Virus record (IMG/VR): IMGVR_UViG_3300042564_003163
DNA length: 41,641 nt
From: a virus
Reading direction: 5' to 3' (one strand)
Shown piece after piece: positions 1,781-41,641 of this stretch (the stretch's first letter is position 1; each line of letters opens with the position of its first letter). Under the pieces are notes generated by a model that was not told the origin of the DNA, ran no database searches, and saw nothing but the letters and a program-made list of their open reading frames with translations. Position numbers and translations under genes: made by a program.

Positions 1781-3355
1781 ATGAATCAATTCGAACTCGT
1801 GGACGATGAATCCACATTTTTTGCACCGGTATCTACCAGCGTTTTGGACTCACTGATCGGTCAATACGACGCCACCAAAGCCCGCATCCTGTCGCTGTCC
1901 GAAACGGTAACGGGCGAAGTCGCTGAGACCGTTCACTACTTTCTGGAGGCGGCCAAGGTGCGTGACCGACATCACAGCGCGCCATCGGTCAGCGAGCTAT
2001 TCAACGCACAACGCGCCGTCGCCGCACTCAATTCCGGTTACTGGAGCAAGGCGCTCCAGCTCACCGATGTGCTCGATTACATGCCCCAGGCGCGCCGTGA
2101 CGAGTGGCACAAAACCATCAGCGAACACAAAGCGCCGGAATTTACCGCCGAGACTGTCCGGGCAACGCTCACGGACTTGCTGAGCAAGCGCAGCCAGTTT
2201 CTGGCCGAGCGTGTCGATGGCATTTTTCGCAACCTGTCCGGTGAGCACGTGACTAACGCCCCGGAGGGCTTCGGCAGGCGTATGATCATCGGCTTCGTGC
2301 TCAACAGCTACTACAGCACGAACCATGGCCGCGCTGGATACATCAACGACCTGCGCGCGGTGATCGCCAAATTCATGGGACGCGACGAACCGAAGTGGAC
2401 AGCCACATCGAGCCTGATAGACACCCTGAAACGTAACTGGGGGCAATGGGTAACGGTTGACGGTGGCGCGCTACGGATGCGCTTGTACAAGAAAGGCACC
2501 GCGCACCTTGAAGTACACCCAGACATGGCCTGGCGTCTGAATTGTGTGCTCGCCCAGCTTTACCCGCTCGCCATTCCCAGCCAATTCAGGAAGCGCCCGG
2601 AGCGCAAGGCCAAGGCCGTGGCCGCGATCATGCGCCCGTTGCCGTTCGCCGTGATCAACCGGTTGTATGAGTTCAAGCGCGACAAATACAACAACAAGTG
2701 GTCATTCTGGCGCGCGGAGGTTGACAAACACGTCGAGCAGCAAGCGCGCCAGGTCATCGAGAGCATGGGCGGTGTCCGGGATAATGACTGCTACCACTTC
2801 GACTACGACCCCACCGATGTGCTCGATGAGATCATCAACAGCGGATGCGTACCCGACCACAAATCGCACCAGTATTACCCTACCCCACCAAGCCTGGCCA
2901 AGATCGCTGTAGAGCTGGCCGAGATCGGCGATACCCACACCGTGCTGGAGCCCAGCGCAGGCCAAGGCGGCCTAGCGGACATTCTGCCCGGTCACACCGT
3001 ATGCGTGGAGCTGAGCAAGCTGCACTGCAAGGTGCTTCAAGCCAAGGGCAAGACCTGCATCGAAGCTGATTTTCTAGCACACCAGTTTGCCGAGCGCTTC
3101 GACCGTATAGTGATGAACCCACCGTTCGACCAAGGCCGGTGGCAGGCGCACTTGGAACGCGCTGCCAGTCTGGTCAAGCCTGGTGGGCGGCTGGTAGCGA
3201 TCCTGCCATCTGGCGCCAAGAATCGGAGCCTTATTCTGGAACTGCCCGGCATGAACCTGGCCTGGCATGGTCCCTACGATAAGGAATTCCAAGGCACAGG
3301 TGTATCCGTAATCATTCTGGTGGCGCAAAATAATTACAGCCCCACAGGCCAGTGA
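1781..3355 (+). CDS. N6-adenine DNA methyltransferase with a large N-terminal domain of unknown function (possibly DUF4942-like)
   Basis: Motif I VLEPSAGQGGLA and motif IV IVMNPPF in the C-terminal 150 aa. RBS aaggaaaa upstream. Confidence 0.8.
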   Translation: MNQFELVDDESTFFAPVSTSVLDSLIGQYDATKARILSLSETVTGEVAETVHYFLEAAKVRDRHHSAPSVSELFNAQRAVAALNSGYWSKALQLTDVLDYMPQARRDEWHKTISEHKAPEFTAETVRATLTDLLSKRSQFLAERVDGIFRNLSGEHVTNAPEGFGRRMIIGFVLNSYYSTNHGRAGYINDLRAVIAKFMGRDEPKWTATSSLIDTLKRNWGQWVTVDGGALRMRLYKKGTAHLEVHPDMAWRLNCVLAQLYPLAIPSQFRKRPERKAKAVAAIMRPLPFAVINRLYEFKRDKYNNKWSFWRAEVDKHVEQQARQVIESMGGVRDNDCYHFDYDPTDVLDEIINSGCVPDHKSHQYYPTPPSLAKIAVELAEIGDTHTVLEPSAGQGGLADILPGHTVCVELSKLHCKVLQAKGKTCIEADFLAHQFAERFDRIVMNPPFDQGRWQAHLERAASLVKPGGRLVAILPSGAKNRSLILELPGMNLAWHGPYDKEFQGTGVSVIILVAQNNYSPTGQ

Positions 3356-6585: not shown

Positions 6586-6775
6586 GTTGCACGTTGCACT
6601 GAGGTTGATGCACTGATTTTTTCCTTAATAATCATATACTTATACCTAAAGGTAAACCAGTGTATGTATGTAGTAATAAATAAGGGGGGTATAGGGAAAG
6701 GGTATAGGTAGAGGTATCAGGAGGGGGGTGGGGGGTAATATAGGCGACCTGATGCACTCGATGCACTGTTGCACT
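6586..6775 (+). repeat. Iteron-like array: 3 + 3 direct copies of G(A/T)TGCACT flanking an AT-rich stretch and a G-tract block
   Basis: Copies at 6586, 6593, 6607 and at 6751, 6760, 6768. AT-rich at 6616-6682. G6/G3 runs at 6684-6735. Confidence 0.7.
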
Positions 6776-6990
6776 GTCCTGCCCAATCCGGCCTGGTGGA
6801 AACAGGGCGCTACAGCGCGCCGAAATGCGCGGACATATCCAGACACCAACACGACCGCGAAAGCCCAGCCACGGGGCTGTATTCAAGCGGTATCGTGTAT
6901 AATTCAATTCATCGGGATAGGACGGCCATCCGAAAAGCAGCAAAGTCCACTGCCTTCCCGATATTTTCTCGGGCTATCGAAAGGACTTCG

Positions 6991-7770
6991 ATGGATATTC
7001 TTAAATCCTCAACTCTGCGAACTCGCCGTTATCGTGAGCGACTCAAGGCTAAAGGCGAACAAAACAAACGCGACTTAGCCAAAGAACGCGAAGCCAAGCG
7101 TCACAAATCAGCATTGTCCAAAGGCTTTGCATCATGGGACGAATATCAGGCATTTAAGGCGCAAACAAAAAAGCCGAAGCAATTACCAAAGAAACGAGTA
7201 ACCGGGCATGATGGTGTTTGCTGGTTATGGGAAAGGCCGGGCTTAAGTGCGGCAGAAAAATTTGCAAAGCGCTATAGTCTCGACCAGCAGTTTGCAGAAA
7301 ATCAGCGCCTTAGATCAATTGTTCAAAAAACAAAAAAACGCATTGAACTTGGAGTGGCTGTTTGCTGGTTATGGCAAAAGCCAGGTCTTACTGAATTGCA
7401 AAGGCATCATGTAAGAAAAAAACTTGATATGGATTATGCTGCAGCCAGTCGCATAAAAAACCAATGTCGCCAGCTATCCGCAGATTTAAGGGCGGCAATA
7501 AAAATGAAATCCGGTTCAAGGGCGTCGTTTCGTAATCTTGGATACACAGCGGCTCAGCTAAGACAGCATATTGAACGACAGTTTGTTGATGGAATGACGT
7601 GGGATGCATTCAATCAAGGGGATATACACATTGACCACATTATCCCAAAAGCGGCATTTGACCTTAGTGATTTTGAGCAGTGGCGCAAATGCTGGTGCAT
7701 GAGCAATCTAAGGCCATTGTGGGCAAAAGATAATGTATCCAAAGGCGCAGAGCTAATGTTTTTGGTTTGA
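6991..7770 (+). CDS. HNH endonuclease (free-standing, low-GC island)
   Basis: C-terminal HNH motif IHIDHIIPKAAF...NLRPLWAKDNVSKG. ATG at 6991 with RBS aagga. The upstream part of the 6769 ORF is judged non-coding. Confidence 0.75.
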   Translation: MDILKSSTLRTRRYRERLKAKGEQNKRDLAKEREAKRHKSALSKGFASWDEYQAFKAQTKKPKQLPKKRVTGHDGVCWLWERPGLSAAEKFAKRYSLDQQFAENQRLRSIVQKTKKRIELGVAVCWLWQKPGLTELQRHHVRKKLDMDYAAASRIKNQCRQLSADLRAAIKMKSGSRASFRNLGYTAAQLRQHIERQFVDGMTWDAFNQGDIHIDHIIPKAAFDLSDFEQWRKCWCMSNLRPLWAKDNVSKGAELMFLV

Positions 7771-7882
7771 GTGTTGTAGGTACCTCCAGAAACCCAGCCG
7801 CGCGGGTGACGCGCGACCCCGATCAAAAACTAGTGGGAGCTATTGAAAGTCTGTTTTGGATAGGCACAGGCTATTGCACGGT

Positions 7883-7926
7883 TTTGGAATATAGAACGCT
7901 TCCTATATTCCTATTTGGAATATAGG
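7883..7926. repeat. Three copies of GGAATATAG in alternating orientation (operator-like or cosB-like)
   Basis: ggaatatag at 7886-7894, its complement ctatattcc at 7903-7911, and ggaatatag at 7917-7925. Confidence 0.7.
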
Positions 7927-7962
7927 CAAATCGTTGCCAGAAAACGACAACATATTGCCAAG

Positions 7963-7991
7963 TTGTACAACGTAATAAACCAGCATACAAT
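7963..7991 (+). promoter_or_regulatory. Candidate promoter of the ParB-to-terminase operon (TTGTAC-17 nt-TACAAT)
   Basis: Hexamers with 17-nt spacing, 38 nt upstream of the 8029 start. Confidence 0.4.
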
Positions 7992-8028
7992 GCGACAACC
8001 TTGAGTTGTCACTGGAGCCGAAGCCCGT

Positions 8029-8700
8029 ATGCTGATCGAAGACTGGCCGCTGTCAAAAATTAGGCCTTACCCGAACAATCCGCGAGTGCTCAGGAACGCC
8101 GCAGAGAAGGTGGCCGAGTCGATCAAGTCATTCGGCTGGCGTCAGCCGATTGTCGTGGACTCTGATGGGGTAATCGTTGCCGGTCACAGCCGACACGCTG
8201 CCGCGCAGTTGCTGAAACTCAAGACCGTGCCGGTGCATGTAGCCAAAGACCTGAGCCCCGATCAGGTCAGGGCGCTCAGGATCGCCGACAACAAGACCGC
8301 GACATTCGCCGACTGGGACGATGCCAAGCTGGCGGACGAACTCTCGGCGATCATGGAAGGCCTGGGCGACATCACCTCGACCGGTTTCAGCCAGTCCGAA
8401 TTCGACGCGCTAGAAATGAGCGCGCTGGCCGAGCTGTCCAAGCTGGAGCAGGTCAACAACCCGGCACCAGCACAGGCCGACGAAGAACCCGACGAAGAAC
8501 CAGCACCAGCTAGTGACGAGCCTGCGCCCAGCCAGGACGAACCGCCGCCGCTGGCCGATATGGTGCCGTTCAACGTGCTCATGACCTTCGAAGCCCGTCA
8601 GGTGGTCTATGACGCGGTGGCAGCCGCGAAGAAACAGCACGGACTGGAACAGACCGCAGACGCCATGCTTGTGATTGCGAGGAAGTATCTCGATGCTTGA
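8029..8700 (+). CDS. ParB/Srx N-terminal domain protein of the type usually fused to N4/N6 methylases, here with an acidic Pro-rich linker and no methylase domain
   Basis: IRPYPNNPR...IVVDSDGVIVAGHSRHAAA...RIADNK...DWDD motifs, followed by DEEPDEEPAPASDEPAP low complexity. Confidence 0.75.
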   Translation: MLIEDWPLSKIRPYPNNPRVLRNAAEKVAESIKSFGWRQPIVVDSDGVIVAGHSRHAAAQLLKLKTVPVHVAKDLSPDQVRALRIADNKTATFADWDDAKLADELSAIMEGLGDITSTGFSQSEFDALEMSALAELSKLEQVNNPAPAQADEEPDEEPAPASDEPAPSQDEPPPLADMVPFNVLMTFEARQVVYDAVAAAKKQHGLEQTADAMLVIARKYLDA

Positions 8701-9391
8701 AACGTTTCCGTGGACTGGTGGACCGGTATTCAGCTCGGCCACTGCATCGGTTATTGCAGCGCACAATCCCGCCTGGGATGCGCTTTACCGATTCGGCAAG
8801 CCTGGCGCGGTATTCGGGTTTGTCGTGGACGGCGAGAACGCCACCCTGCGGCACCGTGGCAGGGCGCACAGCATCGGCAGCGGATGTTACTTCGTGATCC
8901 AGTCGGGCGCTGGCGATCTGACCAACCCGGGCGGTCGGATTCTGTTGATCTACCAGCCTGGAGGCGATTTCCCGTTCATGACCGGTGGACCGGTCGAGAG
9001 CCAGGGGCGGCTCAAGTACATCAACGGCTGCACCGACAGCGTACTGATCCAGCCGTGGCGTAAGGGCGAGGCCTGCCTGAATCACCTGCACATCCCGCCT
9101 GGTGTCGAGCAGATCATGCACACGCACCCGAGCGACCGCATCGGTGTGGTGCACCGTGGCCGGGGGCAGTGTGTGACCCCGGACGGAGTAACGGAACTGG
9201 CGCCCGGCGTACTCTGGCGGATTCCGGCCAACGCGCCGCACCGTTTCAGGACGACCGACAAGCACCTGGACGTGATCGCCTGGCACCCGGACAGCGATGT
9301 CGGACCTACAGACGAGAGCCACCCGATGATCGGCAGGACGTTTGTGGATGGTGTCCGCGCATCCGAAATTGAAACGATCAGGACGCTCTGA
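8693..9391 (+). CDS. Cupin-fold, probably metal-binding protein
   Basis: Cupin motif 1 MHTHPSDRIGVVHRGRG and motif 2 PGVLWRIPANAPHRF. ATG at 8693 overlaps the ParB stop by 8 nt. Confidence 0.6.
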   Translation: MLETFPWTGGPVFSSATASVIAAHNPAWDALYRFGKPGAVFGFVVDGENATLRHRGRAHSIGSGCYFVIQSGAGDLTNPGGRILLIYQPGGDFPFMTGGPVESQGRLKYINGCTDSVLIQPWRKGEACLNHLHIPPGVEQIMHTHPSDRIGVVHRGRGQCVTPDGVTELAPGVLWRIPANAPHRFRTTDKHLDVIAWHPDSDVGPTDESHPMIGRTFVDGVRASEIETIRTL

Positions 9392-10563
9392 TGGCTAAGC
9401 TATTTCGCCGCAAGATTCTTCGTGCCAACGTGTTCGACAAAGCGCTTGAGCGCATGAATCTGCTGTTCGACCGCTTCGACAAGGTGTGCGTGTCGTTTTC
9501 CGGTGGCAAGGATTCCACCGTATGCCTGAATCTGGCGCTGATGGTTGCCAGTGAACGTGGACGGCTACCGCTGGACGTGTACACGTTCGATGAGGAAGCG
9601 ATTCACCCGGAAACCGTCGAATACCTGCACCGGGTAGCAGCGCGCCCGGATATTCGCTTCCGCTGGTACTGCATCCCGGTTCAGCACAGGAACGCATGCA
9701 GCCGAAAATCGCCCTACTGGTATCCATGGAACCCGGCAGAGCGTGGCATCTGGGTGCGCGAACTGCCAAAGACCGCGATCACGAAGCTGCCCGGTTTCAG
9801 CCTGGGCATGTCGATGCCCGACTGCGCACCGCTGGTGTATGGGGCAGAGCACGGCATGGTGGCCGATGTTCGCGGTATCCGGGCACAGGAAAGCCTGCGA
9901 CGGCTGCGCATGGTGTCGATGAAGATTGAGGATAACTGGATCACGTCGCCGAGAAACGGGCATAACTGCGCGGCCAGCCCGATCTACGACTGGACGACCG
10001 AGGATGTCTGGCTGGCGCCCAAGCTGTTCGGCTGGGACTACAACCGGACGTATGACGTATTCGACAAAGCTGGCGTGTCGCACAGCGCCCAGCGCGTGTG
10101 CCCACCCTACGGCGAGGAACCGCTCGGCGGGTTGCATCAGTACGCGCAGTGCTGGCCGCATCTCTGGCACAAGATGATTGCGCGCGTGCCCGGCGCTGCA
10201 ACCGCTGCCCGGTACGCCAAGACCGAGCTGTACGGCTACGGAACCATCGAACTGCCGGAAGGCAAGACCTGGCGGACGTGGTTCGATGATCTGGTGGCGC
10301 TCTGGCCGAAAACCGAGCAGGGCGAGATTCGCGCCAACGTTGCCGAACTGATTGACCTGCACAATCGCAAGACGCTGGGCAGAGACATCCCCGCCGAGGA
10401 AGCCGACCCGGTAAGCGGGGCAAGCTGGCAGTTTTTCTGCATTCTGGCGCTTAGGGGCGACCTGAAAGGCAGGCGCAGCGGGAATATGCAGATCAAGGGC
10501 GATCTGACCCGCAAGAAAACCGGGCAGACGCTTGAGCAGGCACTCGCGGAGGTAGGCCGGTGA
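9391..10563 (+). CDS. PP-loop ATP pyrophosphatase of the PAPS-reductase family (IbrA/DndC-like)
   Basis: PP-loop SFSGGKDS near the N-terminus. 390 aa. TGATG overlap with the cupin gene. Confidence 0.8.
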   Translation: MAKLFRRKILRANVFDKALERMNLLFDRFDKVCVSFSGGKDSTVCLNLALMVASERGRLPLDVYTFDEEAIHPETVEYLHRVAARPDIRFRWYCIPVQHRNACSRKSPYWYPWNPAERGIWVRELPKTAITKLPGFSLGMSMPDCAPLVYGAEHGMVADVRGIRAQESLRRLRMVSMKIEDNWITSPRNGHNCAASPIYDWTTEDVWLAPKLFGWDYNRTYDVFDKAGVSHSAQRVCPPYGEEPLGGLHQYAQCWPHLWHKMIARVPGAATAARYAKTELYGYGTIELPEGKTWRTWFDDLVALWPKTEQGEIRANVAELIDLHNRKTLGRDIPAEEADPVSGASWQFFCILALRGDLKGRRSGNMQIKGDLTRKKTGQTLEQALAEVGR

Positions 10564-11072
10564 GCACCGAAAATCAGCCAGTCAGCCGTGTCCGCTGGAT
10601 CGCTCGGGGGAAACTGAGGGCGAATAATTACAACCCGAACGCGGTAGCGCCGCCTGAGCTCGACCTGCTGAGAACCAGCATTATCGAGGACGGCTGGACT
10701 TCCCCTATCTGCATCCTGCCCGACAACACCATCGTGGACGGGTTTCACCGCTGGACGGTCAGCGCTACGCCTGCCATCCGCGCCATGACTGGCGGCATGG
10801 TGCCGGTAGTGACGATTCAGGCCGACCCGGTGCATCGCATGATGAGCACGATACGGCACAATCGCGCCAGGGGTACGCATGCTGTCCTGAAAATGGCTGA
10901 GATCGTGCGCGGCATGGTCAAAGCCGGAATGAATAGCGCCGAGATATGCCGCAGGCTGGGCATGGAAGATGAAGAGCTGGAGCGCCTGTTGGATCGTTCC
11001 GGTATGACGGTGCGCGGTTCGGCGCGCGCATCGGGTTTCGGCAGGGCGTGGGTGCCAGGCCGCGAAGGATGA
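10560..11072 (+). CDS. ParB-like nuclease domain protein (IbrB-like)
   Basis: NYNPN...LL.SI.EDGW..PI......IVDGFHRW motif. GTGA overlap with the upstream gene. Confidence 0.7.
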   Translation: MSTENQPVSRVRWIARGKLRANNYNPNAVAPPELDLLRTSIIEDGWTSPICILPDNTIVDGFHRWTVSATPAIRAMTGGMVPVVTIQADPVHRMMSTIRHNRARGTHAVLKMAEIVRGMVKAGMNSAEICRRLGMEDEELERLLDRSGMTVRGSARASGFGRAWVPGREG

Positions 11073-11073
11073 T

Positions 11074-11643
11074 ATGGAAATTGTCACACTGCGCGAATTT
11101 GCTCGCCGTGTGGGCGTAAGCCTCACGGCAGTACAAAAAGGAGTTCAAAACGGCAGAATTTATGCCGACAAAGACCCCAAAACAGGGCGCATCAGTGGCA
11201 TTGATTACGATACTCAGGCGGAGGCCTGGGTGGCCAACGCAATGCACCCGCAGAAACGCCCGCATAACATCGCTGGCGGTAGGCCGCGAGAAGACGGCAG
11301 GCCACCGGCAGCGCCAGAAAATCGCACCCAACTCAGGCAGCCAGACGACTCGCCGTCGCCACGGTCAGGCATGCCGCTGGCCGAGATTCAGCGCGCGCGT
11401 GAGTTGGTGAAACTCCAGCTCGATAACGTCAAGCTGAAAGAGGCCCAAGGTGACCTGGTTGCTGCAACCGATGTCGAAAAGCAGGGCAGGCAGCTTGCAT
11501 CGGTGATTATCAGCTCGATGTACAACATCCCCGACCGGATTAGTGACGAACTGGCGGGAATGAGCGAACCGCACGACATCCACCGGCTGCTACTCGAGGA
11601 AATAGACCGGGCGGTTCAAGAATTACGGAAAACGTATGCTTGA
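11074..11643 (+). CDS. terS: Terminase small subunit (Nu1-like, N-terminal winged HTH)
   Basis: N-terminal LREFARRVGVSLTAVQKGVQNGRI HTH. Lies immediately upstream of, and overlaps, the GpA-type large subunit gene. Confidence 0.7.
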   Translation: MEIVTLREFARRVGVSLTAVQKGVQNGRIYADKDPKTGRISGIDYDTQAEAWVANAMHPQKRPHNIAGGRPREDGRPPAAPENRTQLRQPDDSPSPRSGMPLAEIQRARELVKLQLDNVKLKEAQGDLVAATDVEKQGRQLASVIISSMYNIPDRISDELAGMSEPHDIHRLLLEEIDRAVQELRKTYA

Positions 11644-13558
11644 CACTAGGAACCCGTTAATCCGTGGGTTTTTCGAGGTGTTCAACGTGCCCACCCGGCG
11701 CACGGTGACGCAGTGGGCAGACGACAAGCGGATGCTACCCAGCAAGGGTGCGGCAGAGCCGGGTAAGTACCGAAGCGCCCGGACGCCCTACATGCGCGAA
11801 CCGATGGACTGCCTGAGTACGAGCAGCCCCATCGAGGAAGTCGTGCTGATGGCCGCAGCCCAGACCGGAAAATCGGAATCTGGGAATAACTGGGTTGGGT
11901 ATGTGATCGACGAGGCACCAGGTCCGATGCTGCTGGTGCAGCCGACCGTGGACAACGCCAAGCGCTACTCCAAGCAGCGTATCAGCCCGATGATTCTGGA
12001 AACACCGAGCCTGCGCGACAAGGTGCCCCAGAATCGCAGCCGGGATGGCGGTAACAACATGCTTGAGAAGGAATTTCCTGGCGGGATCCTGCTCATGGGC
12101 GGGGCGAACTCAGCCGCTGGCCTGCGCTCGATGCCGATTAGGTATCTTTTCGCTGACGAGATCAGCAACTGGCCGCTCGATGTTGACGGCGAAGGCGACC
12201 CGCTTGGGCTGGCAGAGGAACGGACGAATACGTTCGGGCGCAAGCGCAAGATATTCAAGACCAGCACACCGGGCGTGAAGGATATATGCCGGATCGAGGC
12301 CGAATACCTGAAAACCGACCAGCGCCGGTATTTCGTGCCGTGTCCGCATTGCTCGCACATGCACACGCTGCAATGGAAGAACTTCGTCATACCGAAAGAC
12401 GAGGAAGGTAGGCACCAATTCCGCAAGGCATACATGACGTGCCCGGAATGTGGCGGTGTGATCGAGGAACGGCACAAGACCGACATGCTCAACGGTGGGG
12501 AGTGGGTGCCCACTTGCGCGGAAAAGGCAGACCCGGCAAGGCGCGGCTATCACATCAGCGCGCTGTACTCGCCAGTCGGCTGGAAATCGTGGGCAAAGAT
12601 CGCGCGCCAGTGGGTAGAAGCTCAGGGCAGCCCGAAAAAGCTGCAAGCGTTCGTCAACAACGTGCTGGCCGAGACATGGGAGGAAGCCTACAGCTCGAAA
12701 CTCGACGCGGACAGCCTATCGAAGCGAGCCGAGCCGTTTGACCTGCTGACCGCACCGGCGGGTGGGCTAGTATTGACGGCTGGCGTGGACGTTCAAGAGA
12801 ACCGCATCGAGATCCAGACAGTCGCTTGGGGCATTTCCGAAGAAGCCTGGATCGTGAACTATGCCGTGATTTTCGGCGACCCGTCCCGCTTTGAAATATG
12901 GCAACAGGTGCTCGATGTCATCAATACGCCGATACGCCACGCATCGGGCGCGGACATGCACGTCTATGCTGCCGTGGTGGACTCAGGCGACGGTAACAAG
13001 ACCAACGAGGTCTATAGTTTCACGCGCCAGCATAGAAACCGCCACATCCTGGCTGGCAAGGGTATGTCTGGCAGCAGGCCGCCGATAGGCGCACCGACGA
13101 AGCAGGACATCAACATACGCGGGCAGAAAATCAAGAGCGGGGCGCATCTCTACCCGATTGGCGTGGATAGCATCAAGTCCACGATCTACGGCAGGCTGAA
13201 ACGCCCCGAGGAAACTGGCGCGGGGGTGTTTCATTTCCCGCTGGGCTTGCCAGAGGAATACTTCGATCAGCTCACATCGGAAAAACAGGCGACAAAATTT
13301 GTCAACGGAATGCCGAAGCGATTCTGGACGAAGAAGGACAGCGACCGAAACGAGGCATTGGATACCCTTGTTTACGCTTATGCGGCACTGCATTATTGTT
13401 ATTCGAGACACAATCGCTCAAGTTTTTGGCAGCAAATGTTGTCAAGACTGGAAAAAAAAGCCGAAATAGTACAGAATACTGCGCTGGAAGCGCCCGCCGC
13501 ACCAGAAATACCGGTTGCGCCGGGTAAAATCTCGCTCAACGGATGGAGGCGCGGATGA
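11636..13558 (+). CDS. terL: Terminase large subunit, lambda GpA family
   Basis: Walker A AAAQTGKSE. Zn-ribbon CPHC...CPECGG. 640 aa. Position before gpW and the portal gene. Confidence 0.9.
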   Translation: MLDTRNPLIRGFFEVFNVPTRRTVTQWADDKRMLPSKGAAEPGKYRSARTPYMREPMDCLSTSSPIEEVVLMAAAQTGKSESGNNWVGYVIDEAPGPMLLVQPTVDNAKRYSKQRISPMILETPSLRDKVPQNRSRDGGNNMLEKEFPGGILLMGGANSAAGLRSMPIRYLFADEISNWPLDVDGEGDPLGLAEERTNTFGRKRKIFKTSTPGVKDICRIEAEYLKTDQRRYFVPCPHCSHMHTLQWKNFVIPKDEEGRHQFRKAYMTCPECGGVIEERHKTDMLNGGEWVPTCAEKADPARRGYHISALYSPVGWKSWAKIARQWVEAQGSPKKLQAFVNNVLAETWEEAYSSKLDADSLSKRAEPFDLLTAPAGGLVLTAGVDVQENRIEIQTVAWGISEEAWIVNYAVIFGDPSRFEIWQQVLDVINTPIRHASGADMHVYAAVVDSGDGNKTNEVYSFTRQHRNRHILAGKGMSGSRPPIGAPTKQDINIRGQKIKSGAHLYPIGVDSIKSTIYGRLKRPEETGAGVFHFPLGLPEEYFDQLTSEKQATKFVNGMPKRFWTKKDSDRNEALDTLVYAYAALHYCYSRHNRSSFWQQMLSRLEKKAEIVQNTALEAPAAPEIPVAPGKISLNGWRRG

Positions 13559-41514: not shown

Positions 41515-41641
41515 AAATGATATTTACAGTTAGACACCTCATCGAAATCGCAGACAAAGCTCAAAAAGCAATTGCGCAAGGTGAACTAAGGCCGACAGAC
41601 GAGGTGTATTTATCTCTCGAAGTGACCGATGACAATGACGA
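41515..41641. repeat. Second copy of the terminal overlap (equals 1-127)
   Basis: Exact sequence identity with the window start. Confidence 0.95.

Follow-up and report, generated by a model that had tools for sequence, protein, structure and literature searches.

Several DNA-modification systems provide precedents for the partnership of a ParB-like protein with a PP-loop enzyme or a tRNA-guanine transglycosylase, among them DndB/DndC, DpdB with DpdA, and BrxP. A further pair, IbrA/IbrB, is known from an island in Escherichia coli ECOR-9 and from prophages, and has the paralogues YbdN/YbdM in E. coli K-12, where ybdNM is repressed by YbdO. The literature searched yielded no functional study of, or biochemical function for, IbrA/IbrB, DUF3440 or YbdN/YbdM, and no mention of a cupin partner of IbrA/IbrB. 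Here we describe a conserved four-gene form of this known yet unexplained phage pair, which includes a predicted metalloenzyme. It is found on IMG/VR virus record IMGVR_UViG_3300042564_003163, a stretch of 41,641 nucleotides (nt) that is called the window below and constitutes a complete lambda-like siphovirus genome. The cassette encodes a ParB-like protein (ParB1), a bicupin, an IbrA-family PP-loop enzyme and an IbrB-family ParB-like protein, and runs directly into the genes for the small and large terminase subunits, TerS and TerL. We propose that it may be a late-expressed enzyme set for the modification of DNA or of a nucleotide on its way into DNA, a reading to which we assign a probability of roughly 40%.

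The genes of the cassette lie on the plus strand and are packed end to end. The first open reading frame (ORF1, 8029-8700) encodes ParB1, whose 223 amino acids (aa) form a standalone ParB/Srx N-domain, an acidic, proline-rich linker and a short conserved C-terminal domain. It is followed by the bicupin (ORF2, 8693-9391; 232 aa from its ATG), by IbrA, which combines PAPS_reduct and DUF3440 domains (ORF3, 9391-10563; 390 aa), and by IbrB, with a C-terminal segment like a helix-turn-helix (HTH) (ORF4, 10560-11072; 170 aa). TerS (ORF5, 11074-11643; phrog_57, 1.8e-21) and a TerL of the lambda gpA type (ORF6, 11636-13558; GpA_ATPase 1.2e-94, GpA_nuclease 3.8e-93) continue on the same strand. The ParB1 stop and the cupin ATG share an 8-nt overlap, ATGCTTGA, at 8693-8700; the cupin/IbrA junction is TGATG (9389-9393) and the IbrA/IbrB junction GTGA (10560-10563); a single nucleotide separates the IbrB stop from the terS ATG at 11074, and terS overlaps terL by 8 nt (11636-11643). 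An earlier reading of the letters of the window, the original prediction, had described the four ORFs as coupled to one another and to terS/terL, and its coordinates and every junction were confirmed in the sequence. As relatives with 60-80% protein identity keep the tight spacing, with equal overlaps or gaps of a few bases in their gene calls, the coupling is not due to chance. The same prediction placed the only promoter-like sequence 5' of 8029. Our plus-strand scan did find promoter-like matches there (7964-7991 and 8006-8033) and none within the cassette or terS/terL, but a further plus-strand match lies at 6605-6632 and the count in the region does not exceed the shuffled-sequence expectation; one promoter upstream of 8029 for the whole operon is therefore an idea that is only consistent with the data.

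The kinship of the third and fourth proteins with IbrA and IbrB, suggested at the outset, was borne out by comparison with the annotated pair of Escherichia phage PhiR5_2. The window's IbrA is 30% identical to its counterpart over 365 residues (E 1e-47), and IbrB is 37% identical (E 1e-34). As in the described pairs, PAPS_reduct and DUF3440 occur together, an IbrB-type partner is adjacent and the genes are phage-borne; unlike the annotated E. coli phage pair, that of the window has a bicupin and another ParB-like protein as companions and keeps a fixed place beside terS/terL. IbrA matches PAPS_reduct (PF01507; 3.6e-11, 43.8 bits) and DUF3440 (PF11922; 7.3e-14, 52.4 bits), both above the Pfam cut-offs, as well as phrog_2302 (1.3e-83). 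Its PP-loop, SFSGGKDS, is invariant among 13 diverse and 36 closer homologues, as are the acidic and arginine residues of the PAPS-reductase family, and the assignment of ORF3 to that family by its SGGKDS motif stands. C237 is the one cysteine that is near-invariant in the wide family, C103 is invariant in the close clade alone, and neither alignment contains a three-cysteine set for an Fe-S cluster. In the AlphaFold2 model (mean predicted local distance difference test score, pLDDT, 88) the first ~225 residues match CysH, adenosine 5'-phosphosulfate (APS) reductase, flavin mononucleotide (FMN) adenylyltransferase (the PAPS domain of FAD synthase) and CysD, and no solved structural counterpart was found for the helical DUF3440 half.

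Both remaining proteins carry ParB-like domains. The Pfam scan returned no match for IbrB; its similarity to the phrog_2159 'ParB-like' family (6.8e-62) and the reach of the N-terminal part of its profile to ParB/Spo0J/Noc structures (ParB 4umk, 2.3e-04) agree with the original view of ORF4 as a second ParB-like domain. The IbrB motifs DGFHR and IRHNRARG are invariant among homologues, and profile comparison indicates the HTH-like character of the C-terminal tail. Sequence searches of the PDB retrieved no solved relative of IbrA or IbrB. ParB1 matches Pfam ParB_N (6.8e-08; 32.9 bits against a cut-off of 26.3), phrog_620 (2e-47) and Spo0J/ParB structures (1.9e-06), and its nucleotide-binding GxxR-type motif reads AGHSR; a motif of this type is kept in IbrB too. 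Strong similarity links its N-domain to the ParB N-domains of ParB-methylase fusions (phrog_498, 5e-43; MTase_II in PADLOC, 3e-26), from which it differs in having no methyltransferase domain. The resemblance and the proline-rich linker noted in the original prediction are thus there, but the idea that a methylase had been replaced does not hold: ParB1 aligns with phrog_930 and phrog_723, families of ~220-aa standalone phage ParB-like proteins, over the full length of these families, and is therefore not a methylase that misses its catalytic half. The standalone family phrog_620 shares the N-domain with it. By these alignments ParB1 is an ordinary member of the standalone family and not a truncated methylase. 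ParB-domain methyltransferases and standalone ParB-like phage proteins commonly precede terminase genes.

The second protein is, with high confidence, a three-histidine bicupin that is predicted to bind metal. It matches Cupin_2 (1.2e-12; 47.8 bits against a cut-off of 27.2), and the metal motif HxH...H appears in the translation as MHTHPSD...H183. Across 37 cupin homologues, H143, H145 and H183 are invariant, and so are C113, C128, C160 and a WHPDSD...HPM segment; the customary glutamate of cupin motif 1 is, as read from the alignment alone, an invariant arginine. The AlphaFold2 model (pLDDT 93; predicted template-modelling score, pTM, 0.90) has a two-barrel fold. Foldseek placed closest to it bicupin dioxygenases or decarboxylases and small bicupins whose function is either unknown or of the aminohydrolase type (PDB 1sfn, 1sef, 3rns and 1sq4; template-modelling score ~0.6-0.66), and all nearest solved structures are 10-15% identical to the cupin. 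The small bicupins have the two-barrel fold in common with it at merely 13-15% identity, and the location of the metal motif in the C-terminal barrel is shared with them and with bicupin dioxygenases; the invariant cysteines and WHPDSD...HPM are peculiar to the phage cupin family. When the 37 cupins were compared with Pfam at E <= 1, no specific cupin subfamily emerged, only generic Cupin_2 and AraC_binding; weak matches were to MPI_cupin_dom in 12 of the 37 and to DMSP_lyase in one (E 0.053). The cupin does not match the profiles of cysteine dioxygenase, acireductone dioxygenase, DMSP lyase or sugar isomerases, and a BFVD fold search produced no convincing viral match. A thiol-dioxygenase function, which the three-histidine centre without the usual glutamate and the sulfur chemistry of Srx and PAPS-reductase proteins might bring to mind, found no profile support and is speculation. 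Profile searches (Pfam, PHROG) thus upheld the ParB, cupin and PP-loop assignments with which the analysis began.

How general is this gene set? Megablast of the cassette against GenBank phages gave no match, and the cupin belongs to no PHROG family and has no tblastn match in 50,697 GenBank phage records. A scan of IMG/VR, however, identified 442 viral stretches that encode cupin relatives; a word-indexed search grouped cupin relatives into 191 clusters, and a full profile search into 359 (50% identity level) at E <= 1e-30. For linkage counts, homologues of the proteins of ORF1-ORF6 were located in the best 80 viral loci of the 442. IbrA and IbrB adjoin the cupin on the same strand in 75 of these 80 loci, and in 56 of the 57 with enough flank on both sides. 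The order is cupin-IbrA-IbrB in 59 loci but IbrA-IbrB-cupin in 16, and the existence of two orders speaks for selection on the set and not for one arrangement inherited from a common ancestor. A ParB1-like gene lies 5' of the set in nearly all related loci, and the same quartet surrounds IbrA proteins that are just 55-61% identical to the window's. The original prediction saw the cupin as an extra element wedged between the members of a known pair. That it belongs to neither described pair is supported by the lack of a PHROG family, a GenBank phage match or a literature account; as a one-genome oddity, however, the idea is refuted by the co-occurrence of cupin, IbrA, IbrB and a ParB1-like gene upstream of the terminase. 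IbrA-like proteins as a whole number 1,906 in the database at E <= 1e-10, and an IbrA-like gene, at 35% identity or less, occurs in 223 GenBank phage records, all of which are devoid of the cupin. IbrA/IbrB is accordingly a common phage module, and the cupin, on the evidence of these neighbourhoods, is the constant companion of a single large IbrA clade that is as yet uncultured.

Some phages carry additional genes in the set. Among 88 clustered loci (84 viral and 4 prophage) a second, short PAPS_reduct protein is encoded in 17, a class-II glutamine amidotransferase starting with MCGIFG in seven, and a 160-aa protein between IbrA and IbrB in six. The short PAPS_reduct protein and the class-II amidotransferase (L169, 6716-7513; also L017, L018, L021, L022, L030, L058 and others) amount to a split amidotransferase. 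One contig (L045, IMGVR_UViG_3300033571_005773) encodes ParB1, the cupin, TerS and TerL and has no IbrA/IbrB within the 7.5 kb available; either ParB1 and the cupin act there without IbrA/IbrB, or the pair is elsewhere in the genome. In another (L170, 1725-3152), genes for ThsB-TIR, SLATT and TIR proteins are situated a few kb upstream of the ParB-cupin-IbrA-IbrB set; they may represent a defence island, or else defence genes carried by the phage.

The tie to the packaging genes is stronger than originally noted. Of 70 evaluable loci, 53 have a recognizable TerL within 1.5 kb downstream of the set and another six have one within 4.5 kb; these TerL proteins represent four Pfam families (GpA, Terminase_6, TerL_ATPase and Terminase_3). 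Upstream of the cassette, the related contigs L004 and L007 retain a conserved non-coding block found at 7798-7855 of the window, CGCGGGTGACGCGCGACCCCGATC...AGTGG.AGC...GAAAGTCTGTT, and L170 retains part of it. The starts of three independent IMG/VR contigs (L008, L006 and L007) are equivalent to 7804, 7805 and 7806, and L045 starts with a similar GTGACG... sequence. The block and these three contig starts point to a probable cohesive-end (cos) site, and physical left end, at ~7804-7806; a gpA-type TerL with a small subunit upstream of it is present as well. Between the probable cos end and ParB1, a repeat cluster at 7883-7926, conserved in L007, contains two direct copies of TTTGGAATATAG and the inverted CCTATATTCC/GGAATATAGG; TerS or one of the ParB-like proteins, ParB1 or IbrB, may bind there. 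On the other side, a plus-strand ORF for an HNH-type endonuclease-like protein (6769-7770; phrog_1035 'endonuclease VII', 3e-07; C-terminal H-x-D-H...N...N motif) stops 34 nt before the probable cos end; G+C content is 0.446 at 7001-8000 against ~0.61 in the cassette. This ORF occupies the position of the HNH proteins in HK97-type packaging regions, and from its position we infer a packaging partner. With the order HNH, probable cos, repeats, ParB1, cupin, IbrA, IbrB, TerS, TerL, the cassette would thus, as judged from contig ends, lie among the packaging functions and at the virion chromosome's left end. An HNH-type gene, a probable genome end and the terS/terL of a cos-type (gpA) terminase are shared with HK97-type regions, whereas the ~3 kb in which the four cassette genes separate the genome end from terS are not.

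The remainder of the window is in keeping with a lambda-like phage. Its ends share an exact direct repeat of 127 nt (1-127 = 41515-41641), which identifies it as an assembly of a circle or a concatemer, in which 41,514 nt are unique. The part before the cassette encodes a DNA methyltransferase, primase/VapE, helicase, exonuclease VIII and a Sak4-like protein; after the cassette come the genes for terminase, portal, protease, major head protein, tape measure and a J-like fibre, and endolysin and spanin are encoded as well. The methyltransferase (1781-3355; 524 aa, DUF4942 and MTS, phrog_6263 2.8e-185) means that the phage encodes conventional DNA methylation as well. On the near-identical NCBI contig JAVQHV010108091.1 (L001, 8944-12018) TerL has 1024 aa, with an insert after about residue 82 and a faint LAGLIDADG_3 match, and the same split TerL matches are seen in L006 (3791-6862). 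The insert looks like an intein or homing endonuclease and is absent from the 640-aa TerL of the window.

The relatives of the cupin outside phages offer a view of its likely chemistry. A scan with one genome per species recovered 392 cellular stretches with a cupin relative, and among the best 80 of them IbrA/IbrB occur in four only, which are prophage-like. In 22 cellular loci from five phyla (Gemmatimonadota, Myxococcota, Armatimonadota, Planctomycetota and Verrucomicrobiota) the cupin is clustered with two asparagine-synthetase-like genes, each combining glutaminase and PP-loop, in the order asparagine-synthetase-like, uncharacterized 354-aa protein, asparagine-synthetase-like, optionally an uncharacterized 270-aa protein, and cupin (L166, L167, L124, L138 and 18 other loci). 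At E <= 1e-3, none of the viral loci encodes a homologue of the AsnB-like, 354-aa or 270-aa partners. Other settings are diverse. The cupin is kept across Maricaulis beside sugar/polysaccharide-type genes, and in a myxobacterium it accompanies an AMP-binding enzyme and an amidohydrolase. The gene for a tandem-duplicated cupin of 449 aa follows that for an HTH-NACHT STAND NTPase at a distance of 7 nt (L178, 3664-7350; L179, 2146-5832), and cyanobacterial cupins are divergently oriented from NACHT-WD40 giants (L144, L150, L130); such neighbours hint at a role of the cupin in conflict systems. In eight of nine long proteins examined (P0293, P0331, P0341, P0352, P0355, P0363, P0367 and P0384; 544-1812 aa) the cupin is fused C-terminally to at least one class-I S-adenosylmethionine (SAM) methyltransferase domain. 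In a rough neighbour-joining tree that covers 159 cupins, viral and cellular proteins are interleaved, and no direction of transfer can be read from it. Across viral and cellular neighbourhoods, the recurring partners of the cupin are adenylating enzymes of the ATP-pyrophosphatase type, in many cases together with a glutaminase, and this is the main new clue to the chemistry.

What might such a set of proteins do? The gene set and its coupling, the folds and active-site residues, the neighbourhood and the cupin-PP-loop pairing together argue for a multi-enzyme pathway rather than a group of binding proteins. In the model that we propose, the quartet and the terminase would be expressed jointly, with the quartet's genes opening the late/packaging operon. 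ParB1 and IbrB, with their ParB/Srx folds, may engage DNA in a nucleotide-dependent manner, by analogy with DndB and DpdB. IbrA would use ATP to adenylate an oxyanion or carbonyl of its target, on which a nucleophile could then be installed, and the three-histidine bicupin would perform a metal-dependent tailoring or donor-processing step tied to this adenylation. The product may mark progeny DNA or shield it from host defences, and the expression of the set and the terminase as one unit at the end of the genome would fit with replicated DNA being modified before or during packaging. By analogy, the cassette would work like the Dnd, Dpd and BrxP modification systems without being a member of any of them. 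Like DpdB in the Dpd 7-deazaguanine system (DpdA/DpdB/DpdC), a ParB-like ATPase that assists a DNA-modifying enzyme, the ParB-like proteins might assist here; yet neither a tRNA-guanine-transglycosylase homologue nor QueC/D/E was found in the window, and the fold of IbrA is that of PAPS reductase and not of the QueC type, which sets it apart from both Dpd and Gat-QueC. A link to phage Gat-QueC is offered by those variants of the set that add a glutamine amidotransferase and PP-loop pair. BrxP, from type-4 BREX, is a protein of PAPS-reductase fold assigned to DNA modification in a conflict system; its match to IbrA is limited to the PP-loop (22 bits over 24 residues), and unlike IbrA it has extra domains and a cysteine-rich region and serves host defence rather than a phage. 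Adenylylation of the 5' cos ends by IbrA was considered and fits poorly, the set being found also beside TerL proteins that are not of the gpA (cos) type.

Several observations weigh against this proposal. The solved enzymes of PAPS-reductase fold act on small molecules (sulfonucleotides, FMN). The chemistry, including the oxidative or isomerase step first suggested for the cupin, modification in the course of packaging, the benefit to the phage and DNA rather than a small molecule as the substrate are what we infer. Since the best 80 loci are those most like the query, linkage may be lower across all 442, and ParB/IbrA genes of GenBank phages are not always near a terminase. The cupin family also exists without a ParB/IbrA partner, in the polysaccharide-type, STAND-NTPase and methyltransferase-fusion contexts, and is therefore not intrinsically a DNA enzyme. 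Finally, the sole experimental report on the family, that of Sandt et al. (2002), reportedly deals with the activation of prophage eib genes by ibrAB and not with DNA chemistry.

A more specific form of the model can be framed, which we regard as possible but doubtful. The quartet would carry out an undescribed hypermodification of virion DNA, in which the ParB-like proteins hold DNA open for IbrA to adenylate a position on it, a group that contains nitrogen or sulfur is introduced next, and the three-histidine bicupin oxidizes or otherwise tailors this group in the last step, to give a non-canonical base or backbone that blocks host nucleases. The glutaminase and second PP-loop enzyme of some of the phages would, on this account, serve the installation of nitrogen or sulfur. 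Glutamine amidotransferase and PP-loop enzymes occur in phage DNA-hypermodification pathways.

Could the set instead control gene expression or packaging? The ParB-like proteins would then bind near the genome end, for instance at TTTGGAATATAG, and together with IbrA switch on late transcription or aid the terminase in recognizing or processing cos, the enzymes being nucleotide-driven switches and not modifiers of DNA. Such a role, the only one of the readings with an experimental root, would agree with the reported activation of eib genes that gave the family its name, and the SEED label for the family is 'coactivators of prophage gene expression'. It would also agree with the location of the set between terS and a probable cos end with flanking repeats, with the HNH-type gene across that end, with the position before terS/terL that is kept across terminase families and with the HTH-like segment of IbrB. 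A regulator, however, needs neither an intact PP-loop and a three-histidine centre nor added amidotransferase or second PP-loop genes; the presence of the set beside cos-type and other terminases alike is hard to square with one kind of packaging site, and the IbrA/ParB pairs of cultured phages can be far from the terminase. We consider this explanation unlikely. A similarly low probability is given to the view that the set leaves DNA untouched and produces, changes or removes a metabolite, cofactor or signalling nucleotide, in host takeover, counter-defence or, as the usual 'PAPS reductase' annotation would have it, auxiliary sulfur assimilation. The structural neighbours of IbrA all work on small molecules, the cellular contexts of the cupin (AsnB-like proteins, an AMP-binding enzyme, SAM methyltransferase fusions and a STAND NTPase) are small-molecule- or conflict-like, and phage papers routinely label such genes auxiliary metabolic. 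Two fixed partners of ParB/Srx fold and a tie to the terminase and genome end would nonetheless be needless for a plain metabolic gene, and a true CysH or CysD assimilatory role is unlikely because IbrA scores far below the curated cut-offs (21 bits against 154 for CysH; 27 against 195 and 18 against 397 for the CysD models of NCBIfam).

The original suggestion of phosphorothioation, with IbrA as DndC and IbrB as DndB, is very improbable: the Dnd pair likewise joins a ParB-superfamily protein to an ATP pyrophosphatase of PAPS-reductase fold and acts on DNA, and PADLOC gives a weak partial DndC match to IbrA (23 bits, residues 153-208) among results for the cassette that are confined to partial PP-loop, DndC and methyltransferase-N-domain matches, but IbrA reaches only 15 bits against the cut-off of 290.4 of the curated DndC model TIGR03183, its one near-invariant cysteine contrasts with the requirement of DndC for a [4Fe-4S] cluster (C280 being essential), the window ORFs scanned (the large ones, and the small ones in part) contain no homologue of the DndA/IscS cysteine desulfurase, DndD or DndE, the remaining genes being those of replication, structure and lysis, and Dnd systems have no cupin. 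On sequence grounds, then, the pair is not DndC/DndB.

What do these associations mean for the IbrA/IbrB family? Pairs of this type are widespread, as the GenBank phage records and the E. coli K-12 paralogues attest. What is new is the cupin as a fixed metalloenzyme partner and the fixed place beside the packaging genes. The module is real and widespread, an unusual product is not implied so far, and the new associations make the old question of IbrA/IbrB function testable, for which a defined four-gene set, a metal centre and a predicted dependence on ATP offer handles. A role in the control of late expression or packaging would instead make the set a new terminase accessory. If its product is a DNA modification, that modification would be of a new kind and would bear on phage-host conflict, on sequencing artefacts and on enzyme tools. 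Should the hypermodification of virion DNA prove true, it would provide a biochemical function for IbrA/IbrB, a pair that has gone unexplained since 2002.

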